Positions 124 through 43,916 of a stretch of DNA of 43,916 nt are shown here, in pieces (the stretch's first letter is position 1; each line of letters opens with the position of its first letter). The stretch is from a virus. Lineage: Duplodnaviria > Caudoviricetes. The notes under the pieces are model-generated. The model had not been told where the DNA came from, made no database searches, and was given only the letters and a program-made list of their open reading frames with translations. The translations under genes were made by a program, and so were the position numbers. The stretch covers positions 1 to 43,916 of IMG/VR virus record IMGVR_UViG_3300017747_001763; one strand, 5' to 3'.

Positions 124-344
124 TCAACACCCGTGTCCTTGCGCGACAGCATGGAGCCAATGGTGTTGTCCTGCCGGAACGCCGCCGCGACCGTCGAGCG
201 CTCGGCGATCTCCTTCGCCTTCACGATGGTCTCGGGCGTGTCGTAGCCCGCCAGCGGCAGGGTGGTCGGCTTCTTGGCGTAGTCCGTGAACAGCCCGGCC
301 GGGCCGGCTTCGGCGTCCAGTTCGTCGAAGGTCTTGAAGGTCAC
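1..344 (-). CDS. 5' part of the large internal virion (ejection) protein; continues across the junction into 39794-43916
   Basis: GTG at 344-342 overlaps the TGA of the upstream gene (GTGA). The frame is open (MTFKTFDELDAEAG...) and in frame with the ATG at 47 (=43840), giving a protein of about 1447 aa. Confidence 0.85.
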   Translation of the reverse strand, partial: MTFKTFDELDAEAGPAGLFTDYAKKPTTLPLAGYDTPETIVKAKEIAERSTVAAAFRQDNTIGSMLSRKDTGVDNEDDGQFDPVAYIKDNNLQGYENSFMGVLNGRRADAVRSQ

Positions 345-3058
345 TTGCCGTTCCTCTGCGCCTGCGCCCGAGCATTAAGCTCGTCGAACTCGTTGAGTAT
401 GACAGGCTTTCTTGACGCGCGCTCCTGTTCTCGCGCATCGCGGAGCCGCTGTTCCGTCTTCGCCTTGGCCGCACGTTCCTGCTGCACGGGGGTCTCAATC
501 GCGCCGCGCTGGTAGGCCGGCACCTCGAACGGAATGCCGAACTGATCATAGCCGGTGAAGGACTGCGCATTCTGCTCGGTGATCGCCTTGTTCTTCTCGC
601 CGATATAGGTATCCACGTCGGGGAAGAACGCCCCGTTCAGGACATGCACATCCTGCTCGGGCGTCTTGGGCACGACCATGATCTGGTAGGGCACGGACTG
701 GTAGCTCGTCTCCTGGCCCGGCTTGCTGTCGCGGCGCTTCACGTCCATCGGCCGACCGTCGAAGCCAGCGCGCGTGCTGACGCCGTCCCGCTCGACCGGG
801 AGCAGCACGATCTGGCTCGGATCGACCACGATGCCGAGGTTGTCCTTGACCGTCTTCGCCGCCTGCTCGTTGATCCAGCCGTAGCCGTCGCCGCCGACGC
901 CCGCGATCTTGGGGAGCCCGGCCTTGCTCGGCGGGTAGCGCGTGATGACGCCGTTCTGCGTGCCGAACTGCTTCTGAAACTGCATGTCCGCGTAGGCCAG
1001 TGCAGCGTCGGGGTCGCGGTGCTTCTCGAAGCCCTCTGTCGCGAAGGTCGCGTAGATCGACGAGATCGCCGTGCGCTGCTGGCCGTTCGGAAGCTGCGCG
1101 CTGCCGCTGAAGGGCACCCAAGACGAGAACGCCGACACGAGCCGCTTGTCGATCTGCTCCTGCGTCAGGCTCTGCTTCTTGAACTGCTGAAGCTGCTCCT
1201 GCTTCACCGGGTTCAGCTTCTCGGGATCGCGGGCGTCCTTCATGATCCGCTCGGCCGCCTGCTCCGAGGACAGCCCGAGCCCTTCGGTCAGCCGGCGGTA
1301 TTCGCCAGCGGACTTCTCCAGGTCGGGGCCGCCCTCGACGCCGGCAAAGGCGTTCGGGTTCTGGCGCGCCATGTTGGCCGCCGTCAGCAGCCCGGCCGCG
1401 ACCTTGGCCTTGTCCTCGGAGATCAGCGCGCCGCGCACCGCCGTAGCGAACGCCTGGGGCACGATGCCGGTCTTGTCGAACGCCTGCGCCGCGAGCGCGG
1501 CCGGGTCGCCGCCAGCCTTCACGGCCCGATCATAGTAGGCGCTGATGCCGTCACGGTGGTCCTTGTTGTAGGGGTTCGACACGCCGCGCCCGCCCTGCAT
1601 CAGGCCGATGCCGGTGTTGAAGCTCTCCTCGTCCTTGAACCGCTGCTTGATGATGTTCTCGGCCTTCGAGATTTGGTCGAAGTCCGTCAGCACGCCGTTG
1701 CGCCGTGCGTCCTGGTAGGCGGCCTGCGGGGCGGTGCCCTCCTTCAGGTCGATGTAGAGCGCGTTGCGCTTGGCCTCCAGCGCCTCCTGCGCCGCCTGCG
1801 TCGCGGCGGCGGCCTGCTGGATCAGCGAGCGCTGCGCCGTCTCGGTGACGGCGGCGTTCTGCTGCGGCGTCAGGTTGCTCGCCGCCGCGCTCGGGGCGGC
1901 CGTCGTGCCGCTCCCGTTGAACTTGCGCGTCAGCATCCCGTAGACTTCGGACACCGTGCGGGGCTCGTTGCGCGCGAAGAAGATGCTTCGGTTTGCCGCC
2001 GCCTCCTTCGGGAACAGCGTGGCGGCCGATGCGCCAGCGTCAGACTGCATGGCGCGCAAGAAGTTCGTGCCGCCCGTCTGCCCCATGAAGTGAAGCATGT
2101 AGAGGTTAGCGTCCGTAACCGGCAGCTTCTCGGCCGTCAGCTTCGCCGTGGACGCGGCGATATACTGGTCCAGCACCTTCTCCTGAAGGTCTGGATTGTT
2201 GCGAGGGTCGCTCGCCGTTCCGTTGTTCTCGGCCGTTACCGGCGGTGCGCCCGCCTTGCCGGCAAAGGCGTTCCAGGTGTCGGTGAGGAACTGATAGCGA
2301 CCACGCGCGCTGCTGGAGGTGTTCTTCGCCGTGTCGTCGCCGCCGCTTTCCTTGCCACGAAGCGCGGCGCGGAAGCCCCCGCCGACCTGTCCAGCGATGA
2401 CGCCAGCCGGGTCTTTCTGCGCCCGCGAACTCTCGGCCACATAGGCGAGCGAGTTCTTCGCCTCGGCCTTCAGGCGCTCCTTCTCGGCCGGCGGCAGCGT
2501 GGACTTGTCGATCAGCCCGATCTGCTGCTCGGCGAACTGCTCGTAGGTCAGCGGGTTGTTCTGGACCTGGATGCCGGCCTTCCTCTGCTCCTCGGTCAGC
2601 ACCTGCTTCGTGTTCGTGTCCTGCTGCTGATACTGGTCCTTGAACGCCGACGCGGTGCGGGCCGCCGTGAACCGGGCGGCCTTGGCCTGATACTCGGCCC
2701 GCGCGTGTTCCGGCAGGTTCTTCGTCCACTCGTCGAAGCGCGTCGCGGTCGTGGTGCGCGCGGTCTGCCACCAGCCCTCGCCCGCGCCCGCCAGGCCCGT
2801 CCGCTGGCGCTGCTCATAGTCGGTGTTGTCGGCCTCCTGGAGCTTGACGAACTGCTCCTCGTAGCCGAACTCCTGGACCTTCTTGGCGTTGGCCTGGATT
2901 TTGGCGGCCAGACCCCCGAGCGCATCACCGAGCCCCCCGAGCGCGGCGGCCTCCTGCCCTCCGAACGACGCCGACGTGGCCTTCTCGACCTGGAACTGAC
3001 CGGACGGCAACTCGTTCCGGTTGCCCATGGACATGATGTCAACAGGGAGACGAACCAT
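341..3058 (-). CDS. Internal virion/ejection protein with a central lytic transglycosylase/lysozyme-like domain
   Basis: 905 aa, helical and Ala/Gln-rich. Motifs ESGG...SSARGRYQF..TW and LYMLHFMG are typical of phage virion muralytic domains; located in the ejection-protein cluster. Confidence 0.8.
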   Translation of the reverse strand: MVRLPVDIMSMGNRNELPSGQFQVEKATSASFGGQEAAALGGLGDALGGLAAKIQANAKKVQEFGYEEQFVKLQEADNTDYEQRQRTGLAGAGEGWWQTARTTTATRFDEWTKNLPEHARAEYQAKAARFTAARTASAFKDQYQQQDTNTKQVLTEEQRKAGIQVQNNPLTYEQFAEQQIGLIDKSTLPPAEKERLKAEAKNSLAYVAESSRAQKDPAGVIAGQVGGGFRAALRGKESGGDDTAKNTSSSARGRYQFLTDTWNAFAGKAGAPPVTAENNGTASDPRNNPDLQEKVLDQYIAASTAKLTAEKLPVTDANLYMLHFMGQTGGTNFLRAMQSDAGASAATLFPKEAAANRSIFFARNEPRTVSEVYGMLTRKFNGSGTTAAPSAAASNLTPQQNAAVTETAQRSLIQQAAAATQAAQEALEAKRNALYIDLKEGTAPQAAYQDARRNGVLTDFDQISKAENIIKQRFKDEESFNTGIGLMQGGRGVSNPYNKDHRDGISAYYDRAVKAGGDPAALAAQAFDKTGIVPQAFATAVRGALISEDKAKVAAGLLTAANMARQNPNAFAGVEGGPDLEKSAGEYRRLTEGLGLSSEQAAERIMKDARDPEKLNPVKQEQLQQFKKQSLTQEQIDKRLVSAFSSWVPFSGSAQLPNGQQRTAISSIYATFATEGFEKHRDPDAALAYADMQFQKQFGTQNGVITRYPPSKAGLPKIAGVGGDGYGWINEQAAKTVKDNLGIVVDPSQIVLLPVERDGVSTRAGFDGRPMDVKRRDSKPGQETSYQSVPYQIMVVPKTPEQDVHVLNGAFFPDVDTYIGEKNKAITEQNAQSFTGYDQFGIPFEVPAYQRGAIETPVQQERAAKAKTEQRLRDAREQERASRKPVILNEFDELNARAQAQRNGK

Positions 3059-6960: not shown

Positions 6961-6994
6961 GCGTCGTCGGTATAGTCGTCTCAGCCAGTCGATC

Positions 6995-7459
6995 TTAGGG
7001 AGCGACGAACTCCAGGTCAATGACCAGGCGCGCGCCGGCCGTGGTCGGCAGGTTCGCGACCGCGATGGTGGCGATGATCTCCTCGTCCACCTGGGTCTCG
7101 ACCGCAGCCATCGCAGCGGCCGTTCCGAACAGCGTGGGGGTGTCCACCGCCGTGTGGACCGCCGCCGCGCGATACTTGGCGGGGGCCGCCGCAGTGCCGA
7201 TGGCGATGGTCGAGGTGCCCAGCGAGACCGACGAGGTGATCTTGCCGCCGAGGAAGCGGGTGCCCGCCGGGCGGACGCCGAGGGAGATCGTGTCGGCGAT
7301 GGCGATGACCGCGCCGTTGGACGAGGACGACAGCGCGGGAACGTCGAGCGCGACGGTGGCGCGGAAGCAGCGCTCCCGGCCGCCGTAGGCCGCATCGCCG
7401 GCCGGGCGCGCGGGAACGTCGCCCGAGCTACGAGTTTCGGTGGAAAAGAACTTTGCCAT
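6995..7459 (-). CDS. Capsid cement/decoration protein (BPP-1 Bbp16-like position)
   Basis: 154 aa, beta-rich, GGAG RBS, immediately after the major capsid gene. Confidence 0.65.
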   Translation of the reverse strand: MAKFFSTETRSSGDVPARPAGDAAYGGRERCFRATVALDVPALSSSSNGAVIAIADTISLGVRPAGTRFLGGKITSSVSLGTSTIAIGTAAAPAKYRAAAVHTAVDTPTLFGTAAAMAAVETQVDEEIIATIAVANLPTTAGARLVIDLEFVAP

Positions 7460-8591: not shown

Positions 8592-8622
8592 ATGTGTAAC
8601 TCTGAGTTTGCAGTCCTGTCAA
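8592..8622 (-). promoter_or_regulatory. Putative sigma70-type promoter for the capsid operon
   Basis: TTGACA at 8622-8617 then 17-18 nt to TTACAC/TACACA, just downstream of a terminator. Confidence 0.55.
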
Positions 8623-8652
8623 CAAAGAAGCCCCGCCGGTTAGGGCGGGGCT
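8621..8652 (-). terminator. Intrinsic terminator after the scaffolding gene
   Basis: AGCCCCGCC/GGCGGGGCT 9-bp stem followed by TCTTTGTT on the minus strand. Confidence 0.75.
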
Positions 8653-8691
8653 GAGTTTAGGGAGGAAACGCCCAAGGAGGGCATACAGAAG

Positions 8692-9956: not shown

Positions 9957-11237
9957 TCAGACCTTCACGACGCCGATGGGGCCGATGTCGACCGTGTAGT
10001 CATTGGCTTGCCCCGAAACGAGGTCGATCGAGAAGACGAAGGCGCCCGCCGATGGCGCATTGATGACGGTATAGGCCGGCGTCCGGCTTCGGACGCTGTG
10101 AGCGACGGCGCAGAGTTCCGTGGCCGCATTGTTGACCGAGCAGTCGCGGAAGTTCTTGGCCCCGCCATAGCCGCTGTCGGTCGGGGTGAAGCGGATGCCG
10201 GCCTGCCGGAAGCCCGTCATCGCGCCACTGACCTTGTAGTCGCAGAATGCCTCCAGCCGCTCGCCGGCCGCCAGCGATGCGAGGGCACCGCTGATGAAGG
10301 AGCCGGTCAGGAGAATGAAACCGCCGGACGCATCGGTGCCGCTGATGACGAGACGCTGGCGAACCCACCCGGTATCGGCGTCCGTGATCTTGGACGGGGT
10401 CACGGTCATGCCCGAAGGGATGGACCCGAGCGTCCAGTTGTCCGCGATGTTCGATCCGCCCGAGCCGCCTGTGCCCAGCATACCCGGATTGGCGGCGAGA
10501 GAGCCGTAAGGGTTCTCTGCAGACCAAATGTCACCCGGCGAACCGATGGGAGCATAGGAAAGCGTCGGGAACAGGCGGACCAGCACCGATGCGATCAGGA
10601 CACCGGCCCGAAACGCCCCTTCCAGCGACATGTGGATGTTGTCGGCATTGACCAGAGAGGCGGGCGTCACATTGTTGACGGACGCCTTGTCGCTGAGAGC
10701 GGAGGACAGGTCCACGACCTCGACGCCGCCCTGGATGCGCCCGACGCGCCGTGCCCACGAGAACAGCGCCGCCTGGCGTGCCCATGTCGCGGAGCCCACG
10801 GTATAGTCGCGCCGCAAGTGCTGGATCACGAGGATCGGAAGGATGCCGGCCGCCTTCAGCGCGTCGATGATGCCCTGGTAGTAGCCCGTCGTCGCGGTCA
10901 GCCAGTCCGCAAAGGAAAGCTCGCTGGAGAACCCGGCGTCGTTAGAACTGATGCCGACGAGGCACGCGGCAGCACGAGGTGAGGCCCCGGTGATCAGACC
11001 GATATTGGCGAGAAATGTCTGCCCGCCCTCACCGCCATAGCCGAAGATATGCGAGTGGCGGAACTCGACCTGCGGCGACAGGCGATTGGCCCAGGTGACC
11101 CACCCGACTTCGTTCCAGCTCGCCTGCGATGTGTCGTTGCCGGTGGACTTGCCATAGCTCCGTTCGACGCTCGACGAGCCGATGGCGGCGATAATGGGGC
11201 GGCGACCGATCGCGCCCGTGTTGACGAGTTCGACCAT
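9957..11237 (-). CDS. SGNH/GDSL hydrolase-like protein, probably virion (head-spike) associated
   Basis: Block I IGSSS, block II GYGGE, block III SSND, block V DNIH, followed by a beta-rich C-terminal domain. Confidence 0.75.
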   Translation of the reverse strand: MVELVNTGAIGRRPIIAAIGSSSVERSYGKSTGNDTSQASWNEVGWVTWANRLSPQVEFRHSHIFGYGGEGGQTFLANIGLITGASPRAAACLVGISSNDAGFSSELSFADWLTATTGYYQGIIDALKAAGILPILVIQHLRRDYTVGSATWARQAALFSWARRVGRIQGGVEVVDLSSALSDKASVNNVTPASLVNADNIHMSLEGAFRAGVLIASVLVRLFPTLSYAPIGSPGDIWSAENPYGSLAANPGMLGTGGSGGSNIADNWTLGSIPSGMTVTPSKITDADTGWVRQRLVISGTDASGGFILLTGSFISGALASLAAGERLEAFCDYKVSGAMTGFRQAGIRFTPTDSGYGGAKNFRDCSVNNAATELCAVAHSVRSRTPAYTVINAPSAGAFVFSIDLVSGQANDYTVDIGPIGVVKV

Positions 11238-13802: not shown

Positions 13803-15260
13803 CTAGAGCTTCACTTCGCCTGTGCCAGCGGCTACCATGATAGGGGGCCTGAAGTCACCTCCCCAGGAGACACGACGGTTCATGGTGCGACCAAATCTGC
13901 GGCCCATCATCGCGTAGCGGCTCGCCGATATCAAGTCGTCTGCCAGTTTAACCAGCACGCCGTCCTTGCGGTGGTAGATGTTGAACTCCTCAAACCACAT
14001 CGTGCAGGTGCTGAAGACCTTCCAGCGGCCCTCGTTCATGCGGGTCAGCATGTCCATGATCCCGGCCTCGACGCCGACCGATCCGTCCTCGAAGGTGACG
14101 TGGCTCTCGTGCGTGTTCAGCCCGGCCGCGCGATACTGCTTCGCCAACTGGAGCCCCGAGCCCTTGTCGTGCTGGTTGCCGTCGTGAGGCCACATCCAGG
14201 GCAGGCGAGCGCCCCACTGCTTCAGGGTCGCGCCGTGCACCAACGGGGTCTGCTTGCGCTCGCGATACTCGCGGGTCAGGTAGATCGTGTCGGTGTCGCG
14301 GTCCCAGGCGATCTCGACGGCCGCGAAAGGATGGTCCCAGCCGAAGTCCATTCCACCGAGACGAGCCCAATGGTCGGGAATTTGAATGGGGTCGATCTTG
14401 ATCCGGTCTTCGGAGATGTTGAAGACACGACCTGATCCGAGGACTGGTATGCCTTTCGTGCGGGCGTCACGGGTTGCATCATCGTATGACGCAATAATTC
14501 GAGCCTTCTGCGCATCGCTATAGTGCCCCACGTCTTCGATGGTCATCTGAACCACGACGCGGTCATTGCCGGGGTTCTGGAAGAACTTCATCACGACCTG
14601 GGACATACCCTTCAGCGGCGTGAAGGTGATGTAGACCATGCCATCGGTCGCGTTGGTTCGGGTGACGGCTTCCTCGTAAACGTCATAGGGCGGCTCCTCG
14701 TCGAGCCAGACGCCGTCCACGGTCGAGGCCTGCCACTTCGCGCGGCCCTGGTCGAAGCTCTTGAACTGGAGGATCGACTGGCCGCCCTGGATGTGGTTGA
14801 CCACGACCGCGTCGATGGCGTCCTTGACGCCGGCCCGGCGCTTCGGCTGCTGCGCGATGCACTCGCGCGGGATCAGCCCCGTGCCCCACAGTTCCTCGAT
14901 TGACGGCGGCCCCACGAGCAGGCGCTGCATGCCGTCTCGGGTTAGCTCGCCGCTCTCGGAGCCCGCAAGCCAGGCGGTCGGCCGCGACCACATCCGGCCC
15001 TTCCAGCCGGGCGGATACCGGCCGGTCAGGTGGAAGGCCATCTCCGCTGCGCCCGAGTAGGTCTTGCCTAGCTGGTTGCCGGCCGAGAACAGGCGCTCGC
15101 GATACTTCGCGCCCATCTCGTGGAACAGCACCTGCTTCGGGTAGGGCCGATAGTCGGACAGCTTGGCGAACTTCGCCTGCTCCTGCTTCGCGGCGTTGAC
15201 CCGCTGCACGAGCGCCTGAAGCTCGTCGTCCGACAGGTTGCGGAGGTGTTCGATGCTCAC
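13803..15260 (-). CDS. terL: Terminase large subunit (P22-like)
   Basis: Walker A AGNQLGKT, Walker B VWLDEEPP, TFTPLKG, nuclease GMDFGWDHP and DDLISASRYA. Confidence 0.95.
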   Translation of the reverse strand: MSIEHLRNLSDDELQALVQRVNAAKQEQAKFAKLSDYRPYPKQVLFHEMGAKYRERLFSAGNQLGKTYSGAAEMAFHLTGRYPPGWKGRMWSRPTAWLAGSESGELTRDGMQRLLVGPPSIEELWGTGLIPRECIAQQPKRRAGVKDAIDAVVVNHIQGGQSILQFKSFDQGRAKWQASTVDGVWLDEEPPYDVYEEAVTRTNATDGMVYITFTPLKGMSQVVMKFFQNPGNDRVVVQMTIEDVGHYSDAQKARIIASYDDATRDARTKGIPVLGSGRVFNISEDRIKIDPIQIPDHWARLGGMDFGWDHPFAAVEIAWDRDTDTIYLTREYRERKQTPLVHGATLKQWGARLPWMWPHDGNQHDKGSGLQLAKQYRAAGLNTHESHVTFEDGSVGVEAGIMDMLTRMNEGRWKVFSTCTMWFEEFNIYHRKDGVLVKLADDLISASRYAMMGRRFGRTMNRRVSWGGDFRPPIMVAAGTGEVKL

Positions 15261-18128: not shown

Positions 18129-18671
18129 ATGTATGCGACCAAAGCCGTTATGTCAGACATTCCACCCGATTTGCTCGACCTGTTCGCCATGCGTGACGGT
18201 CGCGTTTGCTGGCAACCCGTCAACACCGTAAGATCGCGCAACGCCAAGCGCGCGCCATGGGGATCACCAGCAGGCGGCAAAGCCGTGATCGGACGCGGCG
18301 CGCTAATAACTGTTTCAGGTTACACGCTCCTGACGGCCGATGTCGCGTTCGCGCTAGAGCACGCTGGAGAATGGGCTTGGCAAATCGACGCCACGCTAGT
18401 CCCCTCACTGCCTCCCGAGCACGACCTTGACCAATGGCGCGCCGTGATCCGCTCGCGCTTCGCTCTAGACGGCGGCGTGCTCGTGTGGGCCACGGATCGC
18501 GGCTTTACTGCCGACCGCACCGCGCGCTACGCGGCCGGCTCGCCAGTCACCGGCCTGCGCTTGTCGGGCTTCCGTGGATCAATCGTCACCACCTCTAGCG
18601 TTGGGCTGCTGTTCAGCGACGTTGTCAGCGTGCTTGAAACCGGCTTGTTTCCCTGGGAAGCGTGGAATTGA
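18129..18671 (+). CDS. Early protein with two tandem HNH-endonuclease N-terminal-like repeats (ends AWN)
   Basis: RBS GGAG; two repeats of F...G...W...GSP..G...G..I.......DV...LE.G.(W/F).W. Confidence 0.7.
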   Translation: MYATKAVMSDIPPDLLDLFAMRDGRVCWQPVNTVRSRNAKRAPWGSPAGGKAVIGRGALITVSGYTLLTADVAFALEHAGEWAWQIDATLVPSLPPEHDLDQWRAVIRSRFALDGGVLVWATDRGFTADRTARYAAGSPVTGLRLSGFRGSIVTTSSVGLLFSDVVSVLETGLFPWEAWN

Positions 18672-23049: not shown

Positions 23050-24409
23050 AGGCTACCAGATCGAAGGCGCTGCGTTCCTGGCCGCCAGCTACCGCGCGTC
23101 GATCTTCGACGAGCCGGGTCTGGGCAAGACGGCGCAGGCGATCCGCGCCTGCGAACTGGTCAAGGCCGAGCGCACCATCGTGATCTGCCCTGCCGGCGTC
23201 CGCCAGGTCTGGCCCTTCCAGTTCAAGCTGTGGGGCCGCAGCAACCCGCGCGTGGTCAAGGCCGACAGCGTGTTCGACCTGGTCGCGTGGCAGAAGGGCC
23301 GCGTGGACGTGCTGGTCATGAGCTTCGAGCAGGCGACCGGATGGTGGCGCGACATCGCGAACGACTTCTTCGACTGCCTGATCATCGACGAGAGCCACTA
23401 CCTGAAGAACCCCGACGCCAAGCGGACCAAGGCCATCGTCGGCGACCACGGCGACGGGATCGGGGCCATCGCCGGCATGGCGAGCTATGTCTGGTGCCTG
23501 ACCGGCACGCCGATCAAGAACGACCCGGCCGATCTGTGGGTTCCGATGCGTCTGTCGATGCAGACCAAGCTGGAGTTCACCGCGTTCCAGAAGCGCTATT
23601 TCAAGCAGCGCATCGGCACGTTCTCGGTGTCCAACACGCCACGCAAGGAAGCCCTGCCCGAGCTTCAGGCGATGATGCGCGACATGTCGCTGATGCGGAC
23701 CTTCGAGGACGTGGGAAGCTCGTTGCCGCCGATCCGGCTGGACGTTCTGCCGGTCGATGGCGACAGCCGCGCCGTGGTCGAATACCTGAAGGACTACCCC
23801 GGCCTGTCCGACCGCATCCTCCAGAGCATCGAAGCCGGTGGCGGGCAGCTATCGTTCGACGACAGCACGCACATCGCGACCCTGCGCGCCATGATCGCCG
23901 AGGCCAAGGCCCCCGGCTATGCGCGGCTGATCACCGAGGAGTTGAAGTCGGGGACCATCGACAAGCTCGTGGTCATGGGCCACCACCGCCGGGGCTTGCA
24001 GATCGTGACCGAGCACCTGAACGCCCACGGCATCCAGGCGTCCATGATCGTCGGCGGAACCTCGGAGCGCCAGCGCGAGGACATCGTGCGCTCGTTCCAG
24101 GACGACCCGAAGGGGGTCCGCGTGATCTGCGGCAACATCACCGCCGCCGGCACCGGCCTGACCCTCACGGCGGCCTGCCGGGTTGATATGCTGGAAAGCT
24201 CCTGGACCCCGGCCGACAACGTCCAGGCCGTTCGGCGCATCCGCCGCAAGGGTCAGACTAGACCGACATTCGCGCGCTTCGTCATGCTCCAGAACAGCTT
24301 TGACGATGCGGTGGCCGGGATCGTGACGCGCAAGGCGAACACGATCATCTCGATCACCGACAAGAACAACCTGCAAGAAGCCATGGCGCACAAGGAGAAC
24401 GCAGCATGA
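23036..24409 (+). CDS. SNF2-family helicase
   Basis: DEPGLGKT, IIDESHYLKN, LTGTPIKN, GTGLTLT and QA..RIRRKGQ motifs. Confidence 0.92.
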   Translation: MEKLEGYQIEGAAFLAASYRASIFDEPGLGKTAQAIRACELVKAERTIVICPAGVRQVWPFQFKLWGRSNPRVVKADSVFDLVAWQKGRVDVLVMSFEQATGWWRDIANDFFDCLIIDESHYLKNPDAKRTKAIVGDHGDGIGAIAGMASYVWCLTGTPIKNDPADLWVPMRLSMQTKLEFTAFQKRYFKQRIGTFSVSNTPRKEALPELQAMMRDMSLMRTFEDVGSSLPPIRLDVLPVDGDSRAVVEYLKDYPGLSDRILQSIEAGGGQLSFDDSTHIATLRAMIAEAKAPGYARLITEELKSGTIDKLVVMGHHRRGLQIVTEHLNAHGIQASMIVGGTSERQREDIVRSFQDDPKGVRVICGNITAAGTGLTLTAACRVDMLESSWTPADNVQAVRRIRRKGQTRPTFARFVMLQNSFDDAVAGIVTRKANTIISITDKNNLQEAMAHKENAA

Positions 24410-25338
24410 AAAAGCAGTTCATTACAAAGGCCTTCGCGCCGGCGTCTCTCGCTGTAATACAAGAAGCGAACAGGATCATAGTTGAATACCAGAGGCAGGG
24501 GTTCACACTTACCTTGCGCCAGCTATACTACCAGTTCGTGTCCCGCAACCTGATCGCCAACAAGCAGAGTGAGTATAAGAGACTTGGCAAGATCATCAGC
24601 AACGGCCGGCTAGCCGGGCTGATCGACTGGGACGCGCTGGAAGACCGCACGCGAAACTTGGAAACGCACGCCTTTTGGTCTTCGCCCGAGAGCATCATCC
24701 AGTCGGCCGCGCAGGGCTACGCCGAGAACCTGTGGGCCTCGCAGGACTTCTACGTCGAGGCGTGGATCGAGAAGGACGCACTCACCGGGGTGATCGCACC
24801 TGTGTGCACCGAGTTCCGCGTGCCCTACTTCTCTTGCCGGGGCTACGCCTCGCAGTCCGAGCTATTCACAGCCGGCGAGCGCCTGAAGCGCCAGCGCGTG
24901 CGCGGCAAGCGCGCCCTGGTTCTGCACCTTGGCGACCATGACCCGAGCGGCATTGACATGACCCGTGACATCGAAGCGCGGCTCAGTATGTTTGCTGACG
25001 GCTGGGACGTAGAGGTGCGCCGGCTCGCGCTCAATTTCGACCAGGTCGAACAATACGACCCGCCGCCAAATCCGCTCAAAGAGAAGGCCGATGGCAGTCT
25101 GAGTGACAGCCGAGGCAACGACTACGCCGAGCAGTTCGGTGACAGCTCGTGGGAGCTTGACGCACTAGAGCCCACGGTAATCTCCGATCTGATCCGCACC
25201 GAGATAGAGGGCGAACTCGACCGCGAGGGGTGGGACGCCGCGCTGGTTCAAGAAAACGACAACCGCTCGGTTCTCGACGACATCGCCTCGCGCTTCGATG
25301 AAGTGCGCGACTTTCTGGCCAGCGAAGGAGACACCTGA
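24406..25338 (+). CDS. Topoisomerase VI-A/Spo11/JetD-like TOPRIM protein
   Basis: TLRQLYY winged-helix motif, WIEKDAL, GDHDPSG (DxD) and WELDAL. Confidence 0.75.
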   Translation: MKKQFITKAFAPASLAVIQEANRIIVEYQRQGFTLTLRQLYYQFVSRNLIANKQSEYKRLGKIISNGRLAGLIDWDALEDRTRNLETHAFWSSPESIIQSAAQGYAENLWASQDFYVEAWIEKDALTGVIAPVCTEFRVPYFSCRGYASQSELFTAGERLKRQRVRGKRALVLHLGDHDPSGIDMTRDIEARLSMFADGWDVEVRRLALNFDQVEQYDPPPNPLKEKADGSLSDSRGNDYAEQFGDSSWELDALEPTVISDLIRTEIEGELDREGWDAALVQENDNRSVLDDIASRFDEVRDFLASEGDT

Positions 25339-29306: not shown

Positions 29307-31469
29307 ATGAAGCTCCACCTCGACTTCGAGACCCGGTCGGCGATCAACCTGAAGACGCACGGGGCCGTGCGCTACGCCATGGACCCGACGACCTCAGTGC
29401 TGTGGGCCTGCTGGTGTATCGAGGACGAGTGGGGCAGGGGAACAGTGAAGCGCTGGCGGCGGGGCGACCCGCCGCCGGTTGAACTGATCGAAGCCGTCGC
29501 CTCGGGCGCGACGGTCGTGGCGCACAACGCCATGTTTGAGTTGGCGATCTGGATTTACGTCTGCGAGCGCATGGGATGGGGCAAGCTCTCCCCGCACCAG
29601 ATGGACTGCACGATGGCGAGGGCGCAGGTCATGTCCCTGCTCGGGTCGCTCGACGGCGTGACCACGCTGCTGCGCCTGAAGAACCGCAAGAACCCAGCCG
29701 GCCGCTCGCTGATCCACCTGTTCTCGGTGCCGCGCAAGCCGACGAAGGACGAAGACCCGCTGAAGCTCTACTGGAACGAGCCCGAGGATCACCCGGCCCG
29801 GTTCCAGGAGTTCGGCGACTACTGCGCCGACGACGTGCTGGCCGAGTGCGACGCTGACGACGCGCTGCCGCAACTGTCGGACAGCGAGCGCGACATCTAT
29901 CACTTCGACCTGGTCGTGAACCTGCGCGGCTTCCGGCTGGACACGGCGACGATGCGCCGGGCCGACGCCTTCCTGGAGGAGGCGAAGAAGCGGGTCGATA
30001 AGGAGATCAACAAGCTGACCGAGGGCGAGGTGCCCAAGGCGACACAGGTTCAGAAGCTGAAGGACTGGCTCAATGGTCGAGGCATCGAAGTCACAAGCAT
30101 CGGCAAGGGTGAAGTCGAAGACATTCTTGCCCACGCACGGCTATTCGATGATGACGTTGCCGAAAACGTCGTTGGGCTACGACGACTTGGAGCTAAGGCG
30201 ACATCTCTTGCAAAGTATGGTTCCGGCCTTAGATGCGCTGGATTTGACGAACGGGCTCGCGGCCTTCTCAACTACCATAAAGCGAGCACCGGACGGTGGG
30301 CTGGAAGTCTATATCAGCCGCATAACTTGGAGCGAATTGATCCTGACGAAGACGGCCCGCTGATCGAACAGATGCTGATGATCCTGCGGGAAGCTGGCAA
30401 CCCGAAGGACGCAGTGGACTGGTGCGAGCTTGTCGGCATGGTGCCGATGCGCGCCATCGGGAAGTGCACGCGCGCCATGATCGTCGCGGCTGACGGCCAT
30501 GAGCTTATCGGCTGCGACTACAGCAACGTCGAAGGGCGCGGCTCGGCTTGGCTCGCGGACGAGACCTGGAAGATCGACGCCTTCAGGGCCTACGACGACG
30601 GCACCGGCCACGATCTCTACAAGCTGGCCTACAGCAAGTCGTTCGGCGAGCCCGTCGAGAGCATCGGCAAGGGTCCGAAGCGCCAGATCGGCAAGGTCCA
30701 GGAGCTATCGCTGGGCTACCAAGGGGCGGTCGGCGCGTTCATGGGCATGGGCGCGAACTACGGCGTCCGCCCCGACAGCCTGCTCGCGGCCGTCAAGCCG
30801 GTCGCCACGGTCGAGGGCTGGGAAGCGGCGGCTGCGAAGTATGAGCGCAGCAACAAGTTCGGCCTGTCGCCTGACCAGTGGACCGCGTTTCGCTACGTCG
30901 TGGACGGCTGGCGATCCGGCCACCCGCGCACGGTCCAAAGCTGGTGGGACTTGCAGGACGCGGTGATCGCGGCCGTGTCCGAACCCGGCCAGATGATCCA
31001 CATGTTCGGCGGCCGTGTCCGCATCTACTGCGCCAGGAACCAGAGCTTCCTCTACATCTATCTGCCCTCGGGTCGGCCGCTCTCCTACTTCCGGCCTCGC
31101 CTGAAGACGGCCACCGAAACCGTCCAGGCCCGCAACGGCGATGTCTACGAGCGCGAGAAGCGGTCGGTCGTGGTCGAGGGCTGGGACAGCCGCCGCAACT
31201 CATGGGGCGATGTCCACCTCTACGGCGGGATCGAGTGGGAGAACATCATCCAGGCCCTGTGCCGCGACCTGCTGGCCCACGGCATGATGGCGTGCGAGCG
31301 CGCCGGCTACCCGGTCGTCCTGCATGTCCACGACGAAGGCGTGTTTGAGGTGCCTATCGGTTCCGGTGACGTGGCCGAGGTGCAGCGTCTGATGGCTATC
31401 CTGCCGCCCTGGGCGCGCGGCTTCCCCCTGACCAGCAGCGCCTGGCGTGACCCGAGGTATGTCAAATGA
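29307..31469 (+). CDS. polA: DNA polymerase family A (APSE-like) with 3'-5' exonuclease
   Basis: Exo I DFETRS, AHNAMFE, TGRW, motif A DYSNVEGR, motif B RQIGKVQELSLGYQG, motif C HVHDE. Confidence 0.95.
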   Translation: MKLHLDFETRSAINLKTHGAVRYAMDPTTSVLWACWCIEDEWGRGTVKRWRRGDPPPVELIEAVASGATVVAHNAMFELAIWIYVCERMGWGKLSPHQMDCTMARAQVMSLLGSLDGVTTLLRLKNRKNPAGRSLIHLFSVPRKPTKDEDPLKLYWNEPEDHPARFQEFGDYCADDVLAECDADDALPQLSDSERDIYHFDLVVNLRGFRLDTATMRRADAFLEEAKKRVDKEINKLTEGEVPKATQVQKLKDWLNGRGIEVTSIGKGEVEDILAHARLFDDDVAENVVGLRRLGAKATSLAKYGSGLRCAGFDERARGLLNYHKASTGRWAGSLYQPHNLERIDPDEDGPLIEQMLMILREAGNPKDAVDWCELVGMVPMRAIGKCTRAMIVAADGHELIGCDYSNVEGRGSAWLADETWKIDAFRAYDDGTGHDLYKLAYSKSFGEPVESIGKGPKRQIGKVQELSLGYQGAVGAFMGMGANYGVRPDSLLAAVKPVATVEGWEAAAAKYERSNKFGLSPDQWTAFRYVVDGWRSGHPRTVQSWWDLQDAVIAAVSEPGQMIHMFGGRVRIYCARNQSFLYIYLPSGRPLSYFRPRLKTATETVQARNGDVYEREKRSVVVEGWDSRRNSWGDVHLYGGIEWENIIQALCRDLLAHGMMACERAGYPVVLHVHDEGVFEVPIGSGDVAEVQRLMAILPPWARGFPLTSSAWRDPRYVK
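30073..30363 (+). CDS. Candidate overprinted gene nested in the DNA polymerase (alternative frame, 96 aa)
   Basis: AAGGA 8 nt before the ATG; polymerase codon usage is abnormal across this span. Confidence 0.5.
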   Translation: MVEASKSQASARVKSKTFLPTHGYSMMTLPKTSLGYDDLELRRHLLQSMVPALDALDLTNGLAAFSTTIKRAPDGGLEVYISRITWSELILTKTAR

Positions 31470-32135: not shown

Positions 32136-32381
32136 ATGCGCCACAAGAGCTACATGGACCTGGCTTCGCAGATGAAGGCCAAGGGTCGCGACTTCACCCT
32201 GGACGAGATTTACCGGATCGTGTGCCGGCCGCCTCATCAGGACGGCCTGTCCACAGACCAGCTTCACAGTCGCTGCTCTCGTGCTATCGGTGAGGCACGG
32301 GCGGCGCTGAAGAAGGAAGGCTACGTCCTCGGCCTTGGCGACAAGCGCCACAGCTACCGGGCCTCCAAGCGCGAGCGGTGA
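32136..32381 (+). CDS. Small basic protein, possible winged-helix DNA-binding protein
   Basis: AAGGAG RBS, ATG 32136, 81 aa; FTLDEIYRIV...SRAIGEARAAL...SYR pattern. Confidence 0.6.
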   Translation: MRHKSYMDLASQMKAKGRDFTLDEIYRIVCRPPHQDGLSTDQLHSRCSRAIGEARAALKKEGYVLGLGDKRHSYRASKRER

Positions 32382-32382
32382 T

Positions 32383-33138
32383 ATGCTGTTTAACGGTGAA
32401 TGTCTAGACGTTATGCGCCGTTTACCAAGTGCGTCTGTAGACGCGGTTCTGTGCGATCTGCCCTACGGCACAACCGCGTGCGCGTGGGACAGTGTTATAG
32501 ACCCTGTGCTCCTTTGGGGCGAGTATAGGCGGCTCTTGACAGAACGCGGAACCGTGGTGCTGACCGCAGCACAGCCGTTTACAACGGCTATAACCTGGCC
32601 TGCTCTCGACCTGTTTAAACACGCATCAGTGTGGGTAAAGAACCGTCCTACTGGGCCGCAGCACGCTAAGAACAGACCTATGAGTAAACACGAAGACGTT
32701 CTCGTTTTCTCCAAGGGAAAGATGGGCCACGCTTCTCAGCTTGGTGAGCGCCGCATGACGTATAACCCGCAAGGTATTTCCGACGCAGGCGAGAAAGTAG
32801 TCACAGCAAGAGGGAGCCATTCTAGGCTCACAGGGGCTAGACCTAATCAGGTAGGGCGCGTTTACCTGGCGCAAACAGGTTTCCCGCACACAGTCTTGTC
32901 GTTCGACAAAGAGGAAACACACGAACACCCAACGCAGAAGCCCGTCGCGCTTATGGACTATCTTGTGAGAACATACACAGACCCCGGCGACACTATCCTT
33001 GACAACGCGATGGGATCTGGAACGTCAGGAGTAGCCGCCGTGCGGGCGGGTCGTCACTTTATCGGTATAGAGCGGGACGTTGAATACTTTAGCATCGCAG
33101 AGCGCCGCATCAACGCAGCCTCGGCCGAGTGGGACTAG
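32383..33138 (+). CDS. Orphan beta-class N6A/N4C DNA methyltransferase (ends EWD)
   Basis: Start ATG 32383; motif IV DLPYG, HPTQKPVAL, motif I DNAMGSGT; atypically AT-rich codons. Confidence 0.9.
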   Translation: MLFNGECLDVMRRLPSASVDAVLCDLPYGTTACAWDSVIDPVLLWGEYRRLLTERGTVVLTAAQPFTTAITWPALDLFKHASVWVKNRPTGPQHAKNRPMSKHEDVLVFSKGKMGHASQLGERRMTYNPQGISDAGEKVVTARGSHSRLTGARPNQVGRVYLAQTGFPHTVLSFDKEETHEHPTQKPVALMDYLVRTYTDPGDTILDNAMGSGTSGVAAVRAGRHFIGIERDVEYFSIAERRINAASAEWD

Positions 33139-39793: not shown

Positions 39794-42700
39794 TCACCGC
39801 CTCGTGTAGTTGGAATTGCCGGTCAGCACCTGCAAAGTCTCGCGCATCCCGTAATAGCTTTGTCCAGGCAAGATCGCAATCGCCTGGTTCACGTCTCGCT
39901 TCGGCGGGGTTTTCCCGCTGGCCTTGTCCCCGACGACGCGCCCGACCGCGATGGCGCTGTCGATCATACCGGCCGAGGGGCCGAGGACAGCGCCGAAGGC
40001 CGCCGCGCTGTCGGACGCCCTGGTCGAGGTGATGCCGACGCCGCCCTTGCCGCCGAGCATGGCGATGGGCGACTTGACCGGGTTGAACCTGTAGTCGTAG
40101 CCGGCCGCGCCCGAGACGCGCTCCGTCCGGTTCGCGAGGTCAAACAGGATCGGGAAGAAGCCCGAGCGGTCCAGCCCCTCGCCGACCAGCAGCATCGGGT
40201 TCTTCGCCGTCTCCTCGGTATACTTCTTCCAGCGCTCCGCGCCGCCCCGCCAGGCCGCCAGGTAGGAGGTCATGCCCCCCAGCATGGTCAGGGCCGTGAG
40301 CCCGCCGATCAGCCGCGCATGGCTCTCCTGGAGCCCACGGATCATGACGCGGCTGTGCGCGCCCATGGCGTAGCCCGAGAACTGCGTGATCATCTTGCCG
40401 ACCGGGTGGTTCGCGAACAGCGGCGCATCGCCGATGCCGCGCCGCGACACGATGCTGTTCACGTCGGTGTTGATGGCCGCCCGGTAGGTCCGCACGGCGT
40501 TCTCGTTGCGCGCGATCTCGGCGGGCGTGCCGCCCTCGGTCAGCCAGCGCTCGGTGTTCGCCACGCGGATGTCGTCCACCGTCTCGCCGTATTTGGCGAA
40601 CAGCCGCGCGATGTCGCCCTGCGTCCTCTCGTCCACCCCGAGCATGCGCAGGAGCCGGGTGCCGTCGCCCTTGACGAACGATCCGTCCTTGCCGCCGTTG
40701 CCGATGATCGCTTCGAGCACGCGGTGCTGCGACACGCTGGAGGCGATGGCCTGCTGCGCGTCGGTGAACACGTTCATGAAGTTCCAGCGAGACGCCAGGC
40801 CCGTCGCCTTCTGCAAGAAGCGCTCGACCTGCGTGGTCTTGTTCAGGAACGGATCGGCGATGTCCCCGTTCGCCGCCATCAGCGAGTGCGTGACCCGCTC
40901 GCTGATCAGGCCCGCCAGCTTCGCCTCCTTGATCGACGCCTTGAACCCGCCGCTGCCGGCGTCGAAGGCCTGCGCCAGCGCCTGGGGCATGGTGCGCAGA
41001 TACGGCCCGATCCCGTGGACCATGGCCGGGCGGTAGAAGTCCGTGATGTTCGCCAGCAGGACGCCGCCCATCTGCCGGATGTAGTTGAAGTGCATCAGCG
41101 AGCGCGTGACGCTGGCGAAGTTTGAGTTGTTCACGCCCTGGCCGTAGGTGCCTCGGATCAGATCGCGGCCTGCCTTCGTGTCGGTGATCGCCGAGCTTTC
41201 GTCCTGCGCCAGCACCTGCTGCGCGTCGAGCTTCGACTTGGCGAGGTCGGCGCGCTTGCCATACTTGTCCCGGCCGAGCACGGAGTTCAGGTCGGCGATG
41301 GTCGCGGCCTTGTCCACGGCCACGCGCAGATCGGAGTATTCCTGCGCGATCTCCGCAAGCTGGTCCGACATGTCGGCCTTGCCGAAGCGGCGGGTCAGTT
41401 CGATCTCGCCAGCCATCGACCGGGCGTAGCGGTTCGCCACCTCGCGCACGTCGTCCTTCAGCCAGCCCTTGCCCTGGAGCAGTTCGTCGGGGACCATGAA
41501 GGTCCGGTCCTTCAGCGGGCCGCTGGTGATCTTCGTGATGAAGCTCGGGATGTCGTCGCGCTGCTGCACCTTGCCGGTGATCTTGTCGTAAATCTCCTTC
41601 GCCGTGGACCGGCCCGCTGCCTCGAAGTCGAACGCCTCGTTCTTCTCCAGCCCGAGCGCGCGGCGCGGCCCCCACTTCCCGTCGAAGCGGTTCTCGATAG
41701 CCTCCAGGACGCGGGCGAACTGGCTGCTCTGCGCCTCGGCGCGGGCCTTCACCTCGTCCGGCGTGAGCTTCGCGGCGCGCTCCTTCATCTTGCCCACGGC
41801 CTCGCCGCGCCGGATGCTGCGCTCGCCCGCCTGCCCAGCCAGGTCGTCGAGGAGCTTGGTCAGCGTGCCGACAAGCTCCTCGGCGTCGATCACCCCGAAC
41901 TGCGTCTGGTCAACCTTCGTGCCCTGCTCCAGCAGCTTGCTCTCGCGCCGCCCCTTCCGCTTGGCCGCGCCTGCCACCGGGTCGCCGGCCTTGCCCGCCT
42001 TCGGGGCGAGCGCCTGACGCAGTTCATCGACGTTGATGCCCTGGACCGACAGGCGCTCCAGTTCATCGACCAGCGACTGCGCCGTGGCGCGGGCGGCCTC
42101 CTGCTCGGCGCGGCGCGCCTGCCAGAACTGCGCCAGGCCCTCGGGCTGGTCGCCCCCTTCGCCGGCCTTCTCCAGCGCGGCGAGCCGGCGGTCTGACGCG
42201 GCGAGCGCCTTCTGGATCTTGTCGGCCTCCTTCAGCGCGTCGCCAAGGGCGCTCTCGGCCTGGCCGACCGGGTCGGCGGCAAGCTTGTTCATGATGTTGC
42301 GCAAGCGCTTCGCCGACGACACGACGGCGCGCTTGGCGGTCTCCTGCGCGTCGTCGATGCGCTGGCTGATCTTCTCATAGCGGCTGGCCTGCGCATCGGG
42401 GTTGCGCTCGGTCAGGTTCCTCATGCGGGCTCGCAGGTTCGCGCGCTCCGTCAGGTAGTTCTTCAGGTCGTCGCCGCCCTTGTCCATCAGGCGCTTCACC
42501 TCGGCGCGAGCCGTCGTCTTGGCCTGCTCGTCCACGGCGTCACGCACGCGGCCACGGGCTTCGGACAGGTCGTCGATCAGGTCTTCGAGGTGGCTGTTCT
42601 TGGCGTCGAGCGCCTTGCCCTCGGCACCGATCTGGTCGATGCGGGAGGAGCGCTCGGGGCCGGACAGGTTCATGTCCTCGGTGCGCAGACGATACTTGGC

Positions 42701-43916
42701 GCGGGCCGAGACCACCTCGGCGCTCTCGCCCTCGTAGGCCCGCGCCATCCGCTCGGCGAAGTGCCGGCCGATGGTTTCGAGGAAGTCGGGCTCGGACGCC
42801 AGGAGCTTGTCGCGGTCGTAGACGCGGCTGAAGTAGCTCGCGGCCGTCTTCACGTCCAGGTCGTCCTCCTTCAGGAGCCCGAGCTTCAGGGCGTCGTTCG
42901 TGAAGTCATCGAACAGCTTGCGGTAGCCCTGCGCGGCGCGGGACACGAACTCGTTGGCGTCCTCGTCGCCGTTCCGCATGGCGCGGCCGACAGCGCTGTA
43001 GAAGTCGTCCTCGCCCATCTTCACGCCGCTGGACCGCATCTCCTTGTAGGACGCCTGCGCCGCGCTCATAGCCTCGGCCTGGAGCCCGGTCACGCGCGTG
43101 CGGATCGCCGCCTCGACGGACACGCCGGTCGTGTCGCCAGCCGAGTGCATGGCCCGGTAGATCGTGTTCTCGTAGAGCACGTTTCCTGCCTGCCGCGCCG
43201 ACGCCGCATAGCGCTGCGTCGCCCGCAGCACGGGGTTGAACCAGGCCGTCTTGTCGGCAACGAACCCCGCCGCAGTTCCTTCCACCGCCAGTTCCTCGCG
43301 GGTGCGGGCCTTCTGGATCGGGTCCACATAGAAGGCCCCATCAGAGACATCAGCGCCAGCGCCAGCGGGCGAGCGCTCGTTGAGGATTTGCGCGGGCACG
43401 AACTCATTCGGCTTGGCTCCCGATTGAATGTCAGCGATCTTCTCCAGCGCCTTCGACGCGGCAATGCTCTCGTTCTTCCCGAGCACGGCCGCGACGCCGC
43501 CGCCGAGCAGCGAGCCGAGGACGGCCGCAGCCCCGACGTTCACCAGGCTTTCGGCCCCGGTGCGGGTCTGCTGCGTGGACTGCAAGAAGCCCTCGGTGGC
43601 GGCCTGCGTGGCGGCGGCCGACGCGCCGGCCATGAGCATCGACCGGCCCACTGACCAGGAGCCCGCAGCCCCGCGAGCGACGACAACGCCGGGGATCAGC
43701 GTCGGGGCGTCGAACACGCCGGCCGCGATCTGCGCTAGCGTGCCGGTCCAGCCGGACGCCTCCAGCGTCTCGCGGTCCCGCTTCTCCATCTCGATCTGCG
43801 AGCGGACGGCGTCGGCGCGCCGGCCGTTCAGCACGCCCATGAAGCTGTTCTCGTAGCCCTGGAGGTTGTTGTCTTTGATGTAGGCGACGGGGTCGAACTG
43901 CCCATCGTCTTCGTTG
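39794..43916 (-). CDS. Large internal virion (ejection) protein, 3' part; begins at 344 across the junction
   Basis: 1348-aa ORF extended to about 1447 aa; helical; SYFSRVYD and QFSGY motifs; T7 gp16-like position between the ejection proteins and tail fibre. Confidence 0.85.
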   Translation of the reverse strand, partial: NEDDGQFDPVAYIKDNNLQGYENSFMGVLNGRRADAVRSQIEMEKRDRETLEASGWTGTLAQIAAGVFDAPTLIPGVVVARGAAGSWSVGRSMLMAGASAAATQAATEGFLQSTQQTRTGAESLVNVGAAAVLGSLLGGGVAAVLGKNESIAASKALEKIADIQSGAKPNEFVPAQILNERSPAGAGADVSDGAFYVDPIQKARTREELAVEGTAAGFVADKTAWFNPVLRATQRYAASARQAGNVLYENTIYRAMHSAGDTTGVSVEAAIRTRVTGLQAEAMSAAQASYKEMRSSGVKMGEDDFYSAVGRAMRNGDEDANEFVSRAAQGYRKLFDDFTNDALKLGLLKEDDLDVKTAASYFSRVYDRDKLLASEPDFLETIGRHFAERMARAYEGESAEVVSARAKYRLRTEDMNLSGPERSSRIDQIGAEGKALDAKNSHLEDLIDDLSEARGRVRDAVDEQAKTTARAEVKRLMDKGGDDLKNYLTERANLRARMRNLTERNPDAQASRYEKISQRIDDAQETAKRAVVSSAKRLRNIMNKLAADPVGQAESALGDALKEADKIQKALAASDRRLAALEKAGEGGDQPEGLAQFWQARRAEQEAARATAQSLVDELERLSVQGINVDELRQALAPKAGKAGDPVAGAAKRKGRRESKLLEQGTKVDQTQFGVIDAEELVGTLTKLLDDLAGQAGERSIRRGEAVGKMKERAAKLTPDEVKARAEAQSSQFARVLEAIENRFDGKWGPRRALGLEKNEAFDFEAAGRSTAKEIYDKITGKVQQRDDIPSFITKITSGPLKDRTFMVPDELLQGKGWLKDDVREVANRYARSMAGEIELTRRFGKADMSDQLAEIAQEYSDLRVAVDKAATIADLNSVLGRDKYGKRADLAKSKLDAQQVLAQDESSAITDTKAGRDLIRGTYGQGVNNSNFASVTRSLMHFNYIRQMGGVLLANITDFYRPAMVHGIGPYLRTMPQALAQAFDAGSGGFKASIKEAKLAGLISERVTHSLMAANGDIADPFLNKTTQVERFLQKATGLASRWNFMNVFTDAQQAIASSVSQHRVLEAIIGNGGKDGSFVKGDGTRLLRMLGVDERTQGDIARLFAKYGETVDDIRVANTERWLTEGGTPAEIARNENAVRTYRAAINTDVNSIVSRRGIGDAPLFANHPVGKMITQFSGYAMGAHSRVMIRGLQESHARLIGGLTALTMLGGMTSYLAAWRGGAERWKKYTEETAKNPMLLVGEGLDRSGFFPILFDLANRTERVSGAAGYDYRFNPVKSPIAMLGGKGGVGITSTRASDSAAAFGAVLGPSAGMIDSAIAVGRVVGDKASGKTPPKRDVNQAIAILPGQSYYGMRETLQVLTGNSNYTRR
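43794..43916. repeat. Terminal direct repeat (assembly overlap), copy 2
   Basis: Identical to 1-123. Confidence 0.97.

Follow-up and report, generated by a model that had tools for sequence, protein, structure and literature searches.

A low-GC patch in a phage DNA polymerase gene coincides with a candidate overprinted gene

The DNA analysed here (the window, 43,916 bases, 66% G+C) is a whole phage record, IMG/VR record IMGVR_UViG_3300017747_001763. Codons of its family A DNA polymerase gene end almost always in G or C, except over one stretch where rare codons cluster and where a 96-amino-acid (aa) open reading frame (ORF) lies on the same strand in another frame. This locus raises the question whether the nested ORF is a gene overprinted on the polymerase, as was originally predicted from the sequence, or a by-product of another process acting on the DNA. 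Relatives were collected from viral and metagenome contig scans, which yielded 12 distinct sequences covering the whole patch (polymerase identity 52-93%) and one covering part of it. Left out of the counts were L028 (the same as the window), L030 and L033-L038 (repeats of L001-L006), and L007 and L008 (which end short of the patch); L029 was counted once with L005, and L042 and L044 once with L041. The window, L001, L002 and the partial L032 are called carriers below. The features of the locus are as follows.

29307..31469, plus strand: family A DNA polymerase, 720 aa; weak match to Pfam DNA_pol_A, strong match to PHROG 17; intact, with no insertion at the patch
30060..30064, plus strand: Shine-Dalgarno-like AAGGA, 8 nt upstream of the nested ATG; extended to AAGGAG in L001 and shared with non-carriers
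30072..30350, plus strand: patch of high divergence and low G+C at third codon positions (GC3); maximum-likelihood limits
30073..30363, plus strand: nested ORF of 96 aa in the +1 frame of the polymerase; 88 aa in L001, 96 aa in L002
30144..30272, plus strand: hypervariable middle, nested residues about 25-67, holding a predicted helix at 38-57
30288..30314, plus strand: run of rare codons retained in carriers, encoding PDGG[LQ]E[VIA] in the nested frame; a beta-hairpin turn is predicted here

The codon pattern first noticed in the sequence, G/C-ending codons except for a rare-codon cluster from about 30070 to 30345, proved correct, including the individual rare codons listed. Polymerase GC3 is 0.45 in the 91 codons at 30072-30344 and 0.90 in the remaining 629, and codons ending in A or T make up 38/68 of those scored within codons 275-343 as against 60/578 outside (p 4.5e-17). 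A maximum-likelihood changepoint fit, made on A/T-ending codons only and pooled over the window, L001 and L002, placed the patch at codons 255-348 (support range 252-270 for the start and 337-356 for the end). The nested ATG lies at codon 255 and its stop at codon 351, so that the fitted limits match both ends of the ORF, as the original prediction had claimed of this 96-aa frame with AAGGA 8 nt before it. The ORF is complete and lies wholly within the older polymerase gene in a different frame. The remaining four alternative frames were considered as genes and rejected, since in the window the +2 frame and all three minus-strand frames hit stops within the patch. Across the aligned relatives, all 91 columns of the patch are ungapped in 15 of 17 rows; one of the other rows is partial and one has 2 gaps.

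Both the patch and the start are restricted to a few genomes. The low-GC3 patch is significant in the window, L001, L002 and the partial L032, weaker in L043, and absent from the other 12 of the 17 rows. The nested ATG is found in the window, L001 and L002, whose patch is stronger than in any other full-length row, and in 0/10 other distinct full-length relatives. Its frame is open in the same three genomes (96, 88 and 96 residues) and through the covered part of L032. L001 and L002, the nearest relatives of full length, thus have the patch, the ATG and the open frame; conservation of the ORF in relatives had been named beforehand as a check. The polymerase frame is older and more widespread than the nested one, because the polymerase matches 1705 phage records and the nested ATG occurs in 3 genomes; no equivalent patch was seen in 8 distant polymerases (35-38% identity). 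A scan of a genome contig collection found no relative. In contigs from four public runs divergence peaks inside the patch (three joints were classed as 'same length, diverged'), and the T of the nested ATG was not among the 40 rows listed, with 151 others beyond these. Public datasets listed as containing this clade come from 14 studies, and no RNA dataset is among those listed, which weighs neither for nor against translation. As a separate observation, L032 carries a Ser-to-Arg change at polymerase codon 326, within the patch, in the otherwise conserved KASTGRW motif.

On a tree built without the patch columns, a single clade (95/96) unites the window, L001, L002 and L032 with the non-carrier L031, and a clade of carriers that excludes L031 is not rejected (p-AU 0.37). 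L043, whose polymerase is 74% identical and which has low GC3 overall (A/T-ending codons 41/68 in the patch vs 241/573 elsewhere), contains its own ATG-started ORF in the nested frame:

L043 4089-4295, plus strand: ORF of 68 aa in the nested frame of the polymerase, with GAGGA upstream and TAG as in L001

A single origin uniting the carriers and L043 as a clade on the patch-free tree was rejected (p-AU 0.0004), and this ORF is therefore either a parallel birth or the remnant of an older gene repeatedly lost. Separately, L041 and L045 have a rare ATA or GTA at polymerase codon 343 that produces a +1 TAG as in L001 and L043, though they have neither patch nor ATG.

The nested frame has fewer stops than its composition would predict. 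When Leu, Val and Ile codons were given third bases as in the other four-fold codons of the patch, 4.1-4.7 stops were expected in the +1 frame of each genome against 0 observed, giving P(open) values of 0.003-0.006 each for the window, L001 and L002; these were not multiplied across genomes because the genomes are related. The avoidance is visible in xTA codons, which within the polymerase patch occur at 0/21 sites before A or G vs 3/12 before C or T (distinct states). Over the three patches described below the counts are 0/63 and 10/43, and outside patches there is no bias (42/1407 and 31/909). In L002 a polymerase Ile-to-Val change abolishes the TGA, and a rare CTA codon (background 0.019) before it supplies TAG at the same place. 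The ATG itself arises in the carriers from a polymerase-silent AAT; at Asn sites outside patches, T is common to all three genomes at 3/28 sites where any has T. The start and the open frame are kept beyond chance in the carriers, more weakly so under a codon-shuffle null given below.

The start signals are of a kind that ribosomes could use. The Shine-Dalgarno-like site has an energy of -5.7 kcal/mol in the window and -9.3 in L001, compared with medians of -6.5 for 31 starts picked from the ORF list and -2.9 for 107 internal alternative-frame ATGs, and folding around the start is weak (at the 5th percentile among the 107 internal ATGs). The site is usable, yet not itself a sign of selection. 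A scan of 29600-30600 found 0 promoter or terminator sites, and no Rfam family was matched within the patch.

The sequence of the nested ORF changes quickly. Between the window and L001, 42/85 polymerase-synonymous comparisons differ in the patch (0.49) vs 83/542 outside (0.15), and the corrected synonymous distances inside and outside are 1.02/0.18, 1.35/0.27 and 0.69/0.28, so that the patch exceeds its surroundings 2.5- to 5.5-fold. Carriers do not differ more in polymerase residues there (5/94 in the patch vs 49/626 outside), which argues against both an older imported allele and hypermutation. The nested products are 44-52% identical, whereas the polymerases are 92-94% identical. Within the nested sequence, residues 25-67 show an identity among carriers no higher than that of a codon-shuffled null, and the first 24 and last 22 residues exceed it; for the C-terminus this holds in some carrier pairs at P 0.015-0.06. 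In six genomes (window, L001, L002, L032, L039 and L043) the two Gly codons of the polymerase motif TGRWAG are the rare GGA, and the nested frame there reads PDGG[LQ]E[VIA].

The types of substitution are also distinctive. Of the four-fold differences in the patch, 42/75 are transversions, and serine codons have switched between TCN and AGY at 3/5 patch sites vs 6/327 elsewhere. From outside to inside the patch, four-fold third positions drop from 377/921 to 26/153 for G and from 455/921 to 49/153 for C. Third-position G fell more than C, and nested Arg consequently declines from the 11-20% of shadow frames to 2-6%. A test for positive selection on the nested ORF gave p 0.006-0.17 across models and pairs. 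The sequence is at least unconstrained and possibly driven; diversifying selection is not established.

The polymerase patch is the strongest of its kind in the genome, but it is not unique. A comparison of 18 genes and the polymerase against five related records revealed a second patch in the terminase large subunit (TerL) and, in relatives, a third in a 1348-aa virion gene, each with a nested ORF.

13803..15260, minus strand: TerL, host of the second nested ORF
14276..14515, minus strand: nested +1 ORF in TerL, 79 aa; ATG and low-GC3 patch in the window, G001 and G002
39794..43840, minus strand: internal virion protein, 1348 aa; host of the third nested ORF
43090..43407, minus strand: nested +1 ORF in the virion gene; the window reads 105 aa, its stop being lost

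The TerL patch, likewise one of high divergence (lowest 40-codon GC3 0.525), occurs in the same three genomes as the polymerase patch and begins 2 codons upstream of a shared +1 ATG (14515). Among 19 aligned TerL loci, of which only three below 58% identity were taken in, it is confined to these genomes and a window-identical copy; L052 has the ATG, no patch and an earlier stop. Stop avoidance in TerL is weak (P 0.16-0.20) and nested replacements are not conservative (P 0.44), and the window-G001 excess over a mutation-selection model has p < 2e-6 in all six settings of that model, for which eleven core genes supplied the fit. Of the three nested ORFs, the one in the virion gene is the best supported. 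Its ATG is present in 9/9 rows down to 60% identity (window, L126-L132 and L025), it spans 73 codons and ends at TAG in 8/9 rows through rare ATA or GTA codons, and its replacements are conservative (0/2000 null runs as extreme). The N-terminus is hydrophobic, with a best 19-residue hydropathy of 1.6-1.9 in 3/8 rows. The window has the weakest patch in this gene, and its copy of the ORF appears to be decaying.

Alternative-frame ATGs common to the three genomes number 23, in 15 genes, and only four of them are open for at least 70 codons in all three; 3 of these 4 long shared ORFs begin the three low-GC3 patches. This match of patch and start in one clade is the strongest argument that the nested frames may be genes of different ages. 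Other places were also observed. The first 40 codons of the G002 helicase (L022 near 6981-7100) have 9-11/20 A/T-ending codons where the window and G001 have 2-5, which may mark a patch specific to that lineage. Two more +1 ATG ORFs, at 124-570 and 2236-2442 (both minus strand), overlap a 905-aa gene at 341-3058 in which A/T-ending codons are slightly up; the ATG of the second is common to the window, G001 and G002 (68, 52 and 52 aa).

The predicted product resembles an ordinary protein in composition, with 6% Arg and 29% Ile, Leu, Val, Phe and Met (ordinary genes 6% and 25%; shadow frames 11-20% and 5-19%). The earlier description of a protein-like peptide was correct as to its sequence, although this composition follows largely from the drop in GC3. 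No transmembrane stretch or lipoprotein-like N-terminus was seen in it (best 19-residue hydropathy 0.85-0.88). A low-confidence AlphaFold2 model (pLDDT 53) has a disordered N-terminus, a helix at 38-57 and a hairpin at 63-85, and non-carrier shadows are modelled as coil (pLDDT 44.5). A fold search with the pLDDT-53 model returned 0 matches at E 0.001. Pfam gave no match for the nested ORF of the window (E 0.001) nor for those of L001, L002 and L043 (E 0.5), PHROGs gave none for the polymerase-nested ORF, and the ESM Atlas gave none, with recognition scores of 1794 and 1703 that lie under the known-family level. No relative was found in viral contigs searched with the nested peptides, a search for which the carriers are themselves too diverged, or among 56 candidates of 48-168 aa in a protein collection. 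Known anti-defence protein families showed no sequence match, and the fold search, made with a low-confidence model, was empty for them too at E 0.001.

Several observations weigh against the interpretation of the ORF as a selected gene. The nested frame is also open over 96 codons in the non-carriers L003, L006 and L031, where it reads as an Arg/Ser/Gly-rich shadow that has no start codon, and a within-patch shuffle of synonymous codons yields P(open) of 0.065, 0.114 and 0.29; this null is the weaker one because the shuffle retains the observed scarcity of stop-making codons. AAGGA is equally present in four non-carriers, because the Lys-Asp codons of the polymerase spell it. L031 falls within the carrier clade and has neither the ATG nor the patch, and the full-length carriers number three and are mutually related, so that counts over them are not independent. 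Synonymous sites of the polymerase in the patch are unconstrained and the usual signature of overlap is absent: the constraint expected by the original prediction was contradicted, the sites being three to five times more diverged instead. Replacements in the nested product show no conservatism (mean BLOSUM score -1.27, against -1.17 for the null; P 0.87), and the polymerase excess over the mutation-selection model is modest and model-dependent (33/76 vs 22-28 expected, p 0.006-0.13). Searches for homologues, families and folds were all empty, which shows neither novelty nor absence. The proposal of a selected nested gene stands for its start, open frame and length, which are kept in carriers, and for the avoidance of stops, but not for AAGGA. 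We also looked for a frame broken in close relatives together with a patch taken from a lower-GC polymerase, the outcome named beforehand as contrary to a gene, and did not find it. As to the lack of constraint, young overprinted genes are likewise reported to show no reduced host-frame synonymous variability (PMC3494269).

Other explanations account for parts of these data. Translation and a harmless composition might be selected in a proto-gene, or as tuning of polymerase output, with a peptide that has no target. The randomised middle of the product and its non-conservative replacements fit this explanation, and release from codon bias fits the divergence under some model settings (p up to 0.17). 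It does not account well for the PDGGxEV rare codons kept in six genomes, for the C-terminal identity above the shuffled null in some pairs, or for the serine codon switches, which suggest more than drift; moreover, the position of the stop relative to an in-frame Met varies among carriers, so that there is no fixed re-initiation layout. We consider it unlikely. Still less likely is a change at the level of DNA or RNA that leaves the ORF as a by-product, for instance through evasion of CRISPR targeting or of a homing endonuclease, or through an A/T-rich cis element. Polymerase and terminase genes are classic homing sites, the public-run contigs of relatives diverge most exactly in the patch, and the +1 frame of this region is often open in any case. 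However, this explanation predicts neither limits at a start and a stop, nor stop avoidance in one frame, nor the same layout in three genes, and the changes are spread across 280 nt rather than over short target sites. No recognised endonuclease family was found by Pfam or PHROG in the genes adjoining the polymerase, and a cis element is disfavoured by the lack of any Rfam family or promoter-like or terminator-like site in the patch.

Import of the patch by recombination from a lower-GC relative is very unlikely. Low-GC3 L043 does share the GGA..GGA AGT..TAT block and has its own +1 ORF at this place, but codon identity to L043 is equal inside and outside the patch (0.40 vs 0.41), no excess codon sharing with L043, L039, L040 or others was detected (donors outside the collections are possible), polymerase residues do not differ as those of an older allele would, and TerL, at a distance of 15 kb, has its patch in the same three genomes. 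Hypermutation biased locally towards A/T, for example by deamination of exposed single-stranded DNA, is just as improbable: it would raise synonymous divergence and lower GC3, as observed, but it is at odds with the transversions, the greater fall of G than of C and the unraised polymerase residue changes, and random A/T changes would be expected to create about 4 stops per genome. A cytosine-deamination spectrum was rejected on the patch substitution pattern.

An overprinted gene is the explanation that we prefer. Translation and selection of the nested ORF are probable, and it is somewhat less certain, though still favoured, that the product itself is functional and most likely faces the host. 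Taken together, we lean towards a young gene whose translation yields a small soluble product acting on the host in the replication phase. In GC-rich non-carriers the +1 frame is often already open with AAGGA, as an Arg/Ser/Gly-rich shadow without a start, and the carriers' silent AAT creates the ATG. Changes at polymerase-silent third positions, which are nested second positions, give the frame an ordinary-protein make-up and avoid stops, and nested turnover is at least that of unconstrained sites and fastest in the middle, polymerase residues remaining stable. Ribosomes would initiate internally on the polymerase mRNA, and the product would appear together with the polymerase. Fast turnover around a kept C-terminal motif might reflect weak or diversifying selection, as for a binder of a variable host target, and the TerL and virion-gene ORFs may have a like origin.

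Nested genes are familiar in tailed phages, as in T4 30.3', T7 4.1/4.2 and 19.2/19.3, and lambda Rz1. Like these, the polymerase-nested ORF is a small, same-strand, frame-shifted ORF inside a larger gene, and a T7 case lies in the terminase; no sequence relation to the T4, T7 or lambda genes was found. Rz1 is a lipoprotein that partners the product of the gene around it; the present product has no lipoprotein-like N-terminus. Out-of-frame HNH endonucleases of the ShiLan type are reportedly found within inteins, or within insertions that keep the frame, in phage polymerase and methylase genes, and share with our case a second gene in a shifted frame of a phage polymerase that remains open. A hidden element of this type was rejected here, as the patch does not lie in inserted DNA and the Pfam and PHROG searches gave no nuclease family. 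An embedded lysis gene of the Sgl, E or Rz1 type was also rejected, the polymerase-nested ORF having no transmembrane segment or lipoprotein signal. A literature search of partial coverage found no report of a gene nested within the polymerase or terminase gene of a phage like this one.

Similar cases have been described for other viruses. A study of 12 validated viral overprinted genes (Sabath, Wagner, Karlin 2012, PMC3494269) and a review (PMC8227390) describe such genes as young and rapidly evolving under weak or positive selection. The polymerase-nested ORF resembles the young genes of those accounts in being an alternative-frame ORF in an older gene, lineage-restricted, of unusual codon usage and within a conserved host frame. 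It differs from the 12 experimentally validated genes (PMC3494269) in being a sequence-based candidate, in having as host the conserved core of a tailed double-stranded DNA phage polymerase, in occurring in a genome with three such cases, and in that relatives show the open, unstarted state. The sgl genes embedded in the replicase of single-stranded RNA phages, whose orthologues are 38-47% identical (Chamakura et al. 2020, PMC7693330), are likewise small, replicase-embedded and gained or lost among close relatives, with Shine-Dalgarno sequence, start, stop and length kept. Many Sgls are membrane lysis proteins (PMC7693330), in contrast with the polymerase-nested product, which has no hydrophobic segment, in a phage that encodes its own endolysin.

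The genome as a whole carries structural genes of podovirus type on its minus strand, and its plus strand has a block of helicase, exonuclease-like, single-stranded DNA-binding protein, polymerase and primase genes. Its host appears to be alphaproteobacterial, because the closest named polymerase match is that of Rhizobium phage RHph_N65 (37% identity) and the Rfam suhB/mmgR small RNA is matched at 8614-8689 (minus strand, 59.9 bits, gathering threshold 41), between the capsid gene and its upstream gene. A lipase-like gene (9957-11237, minus strand), a topoisomerase-like gene (24406-25338, plus strand) and a DNA methylase (32335-33138, plus strand) have no match in G001 or G002; the methylase has a GC3 of 0.58 throughout, as expected of a recent arrival. 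An ORF of 180 aa at 18129-18671 (plus strand; GC3 0.69; identity 67% in G001 and 55% in G002) was considered as an HNH nuclease but has no Pfam or PHROG family match.

According to a review (PMC10286901), polymerase and terminase are among the phage proteins sensed by bacterial defences or mutated to escape them, and the nested products are therefore candidate counter-defence proteins. A broader proposal, which we hold only tentatively and think doubtful, is that this clade repeatedly grows counter-defence genes within the genes that trigger defence (polymerase, terminase and an ejected virion protein), which would place trigger and antidote inseparably on one mRNA. If so, an arms race conducted through the silent sites of the host gene would produce accelerated rather than constrained synonymous patches, and the L043 ORF would have been born in parallel, in a frame that was already open. 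Gene callers and scans for synonymous constraint would miss genes of this sort, yet their signature would make them easy to find in GC-rich phages.

If the nested ORF is translated, the comparison of close relatives would have captured a gene being born de novo within the most conserved portion of a tailed-phage polymerase: the non-carriers hold an open but unstarted shadow, and the carriers a started, protein-like and fast-changing frame. The search signature of such a gene would be low GC3, raised synonymous divergence, a shared +1 ATG at the edge of the patch and avoidance of stops. Because this is the opposite of what scans of the Synplot2 or FRESCo type target, small phage genes of this class may be escaping notice.

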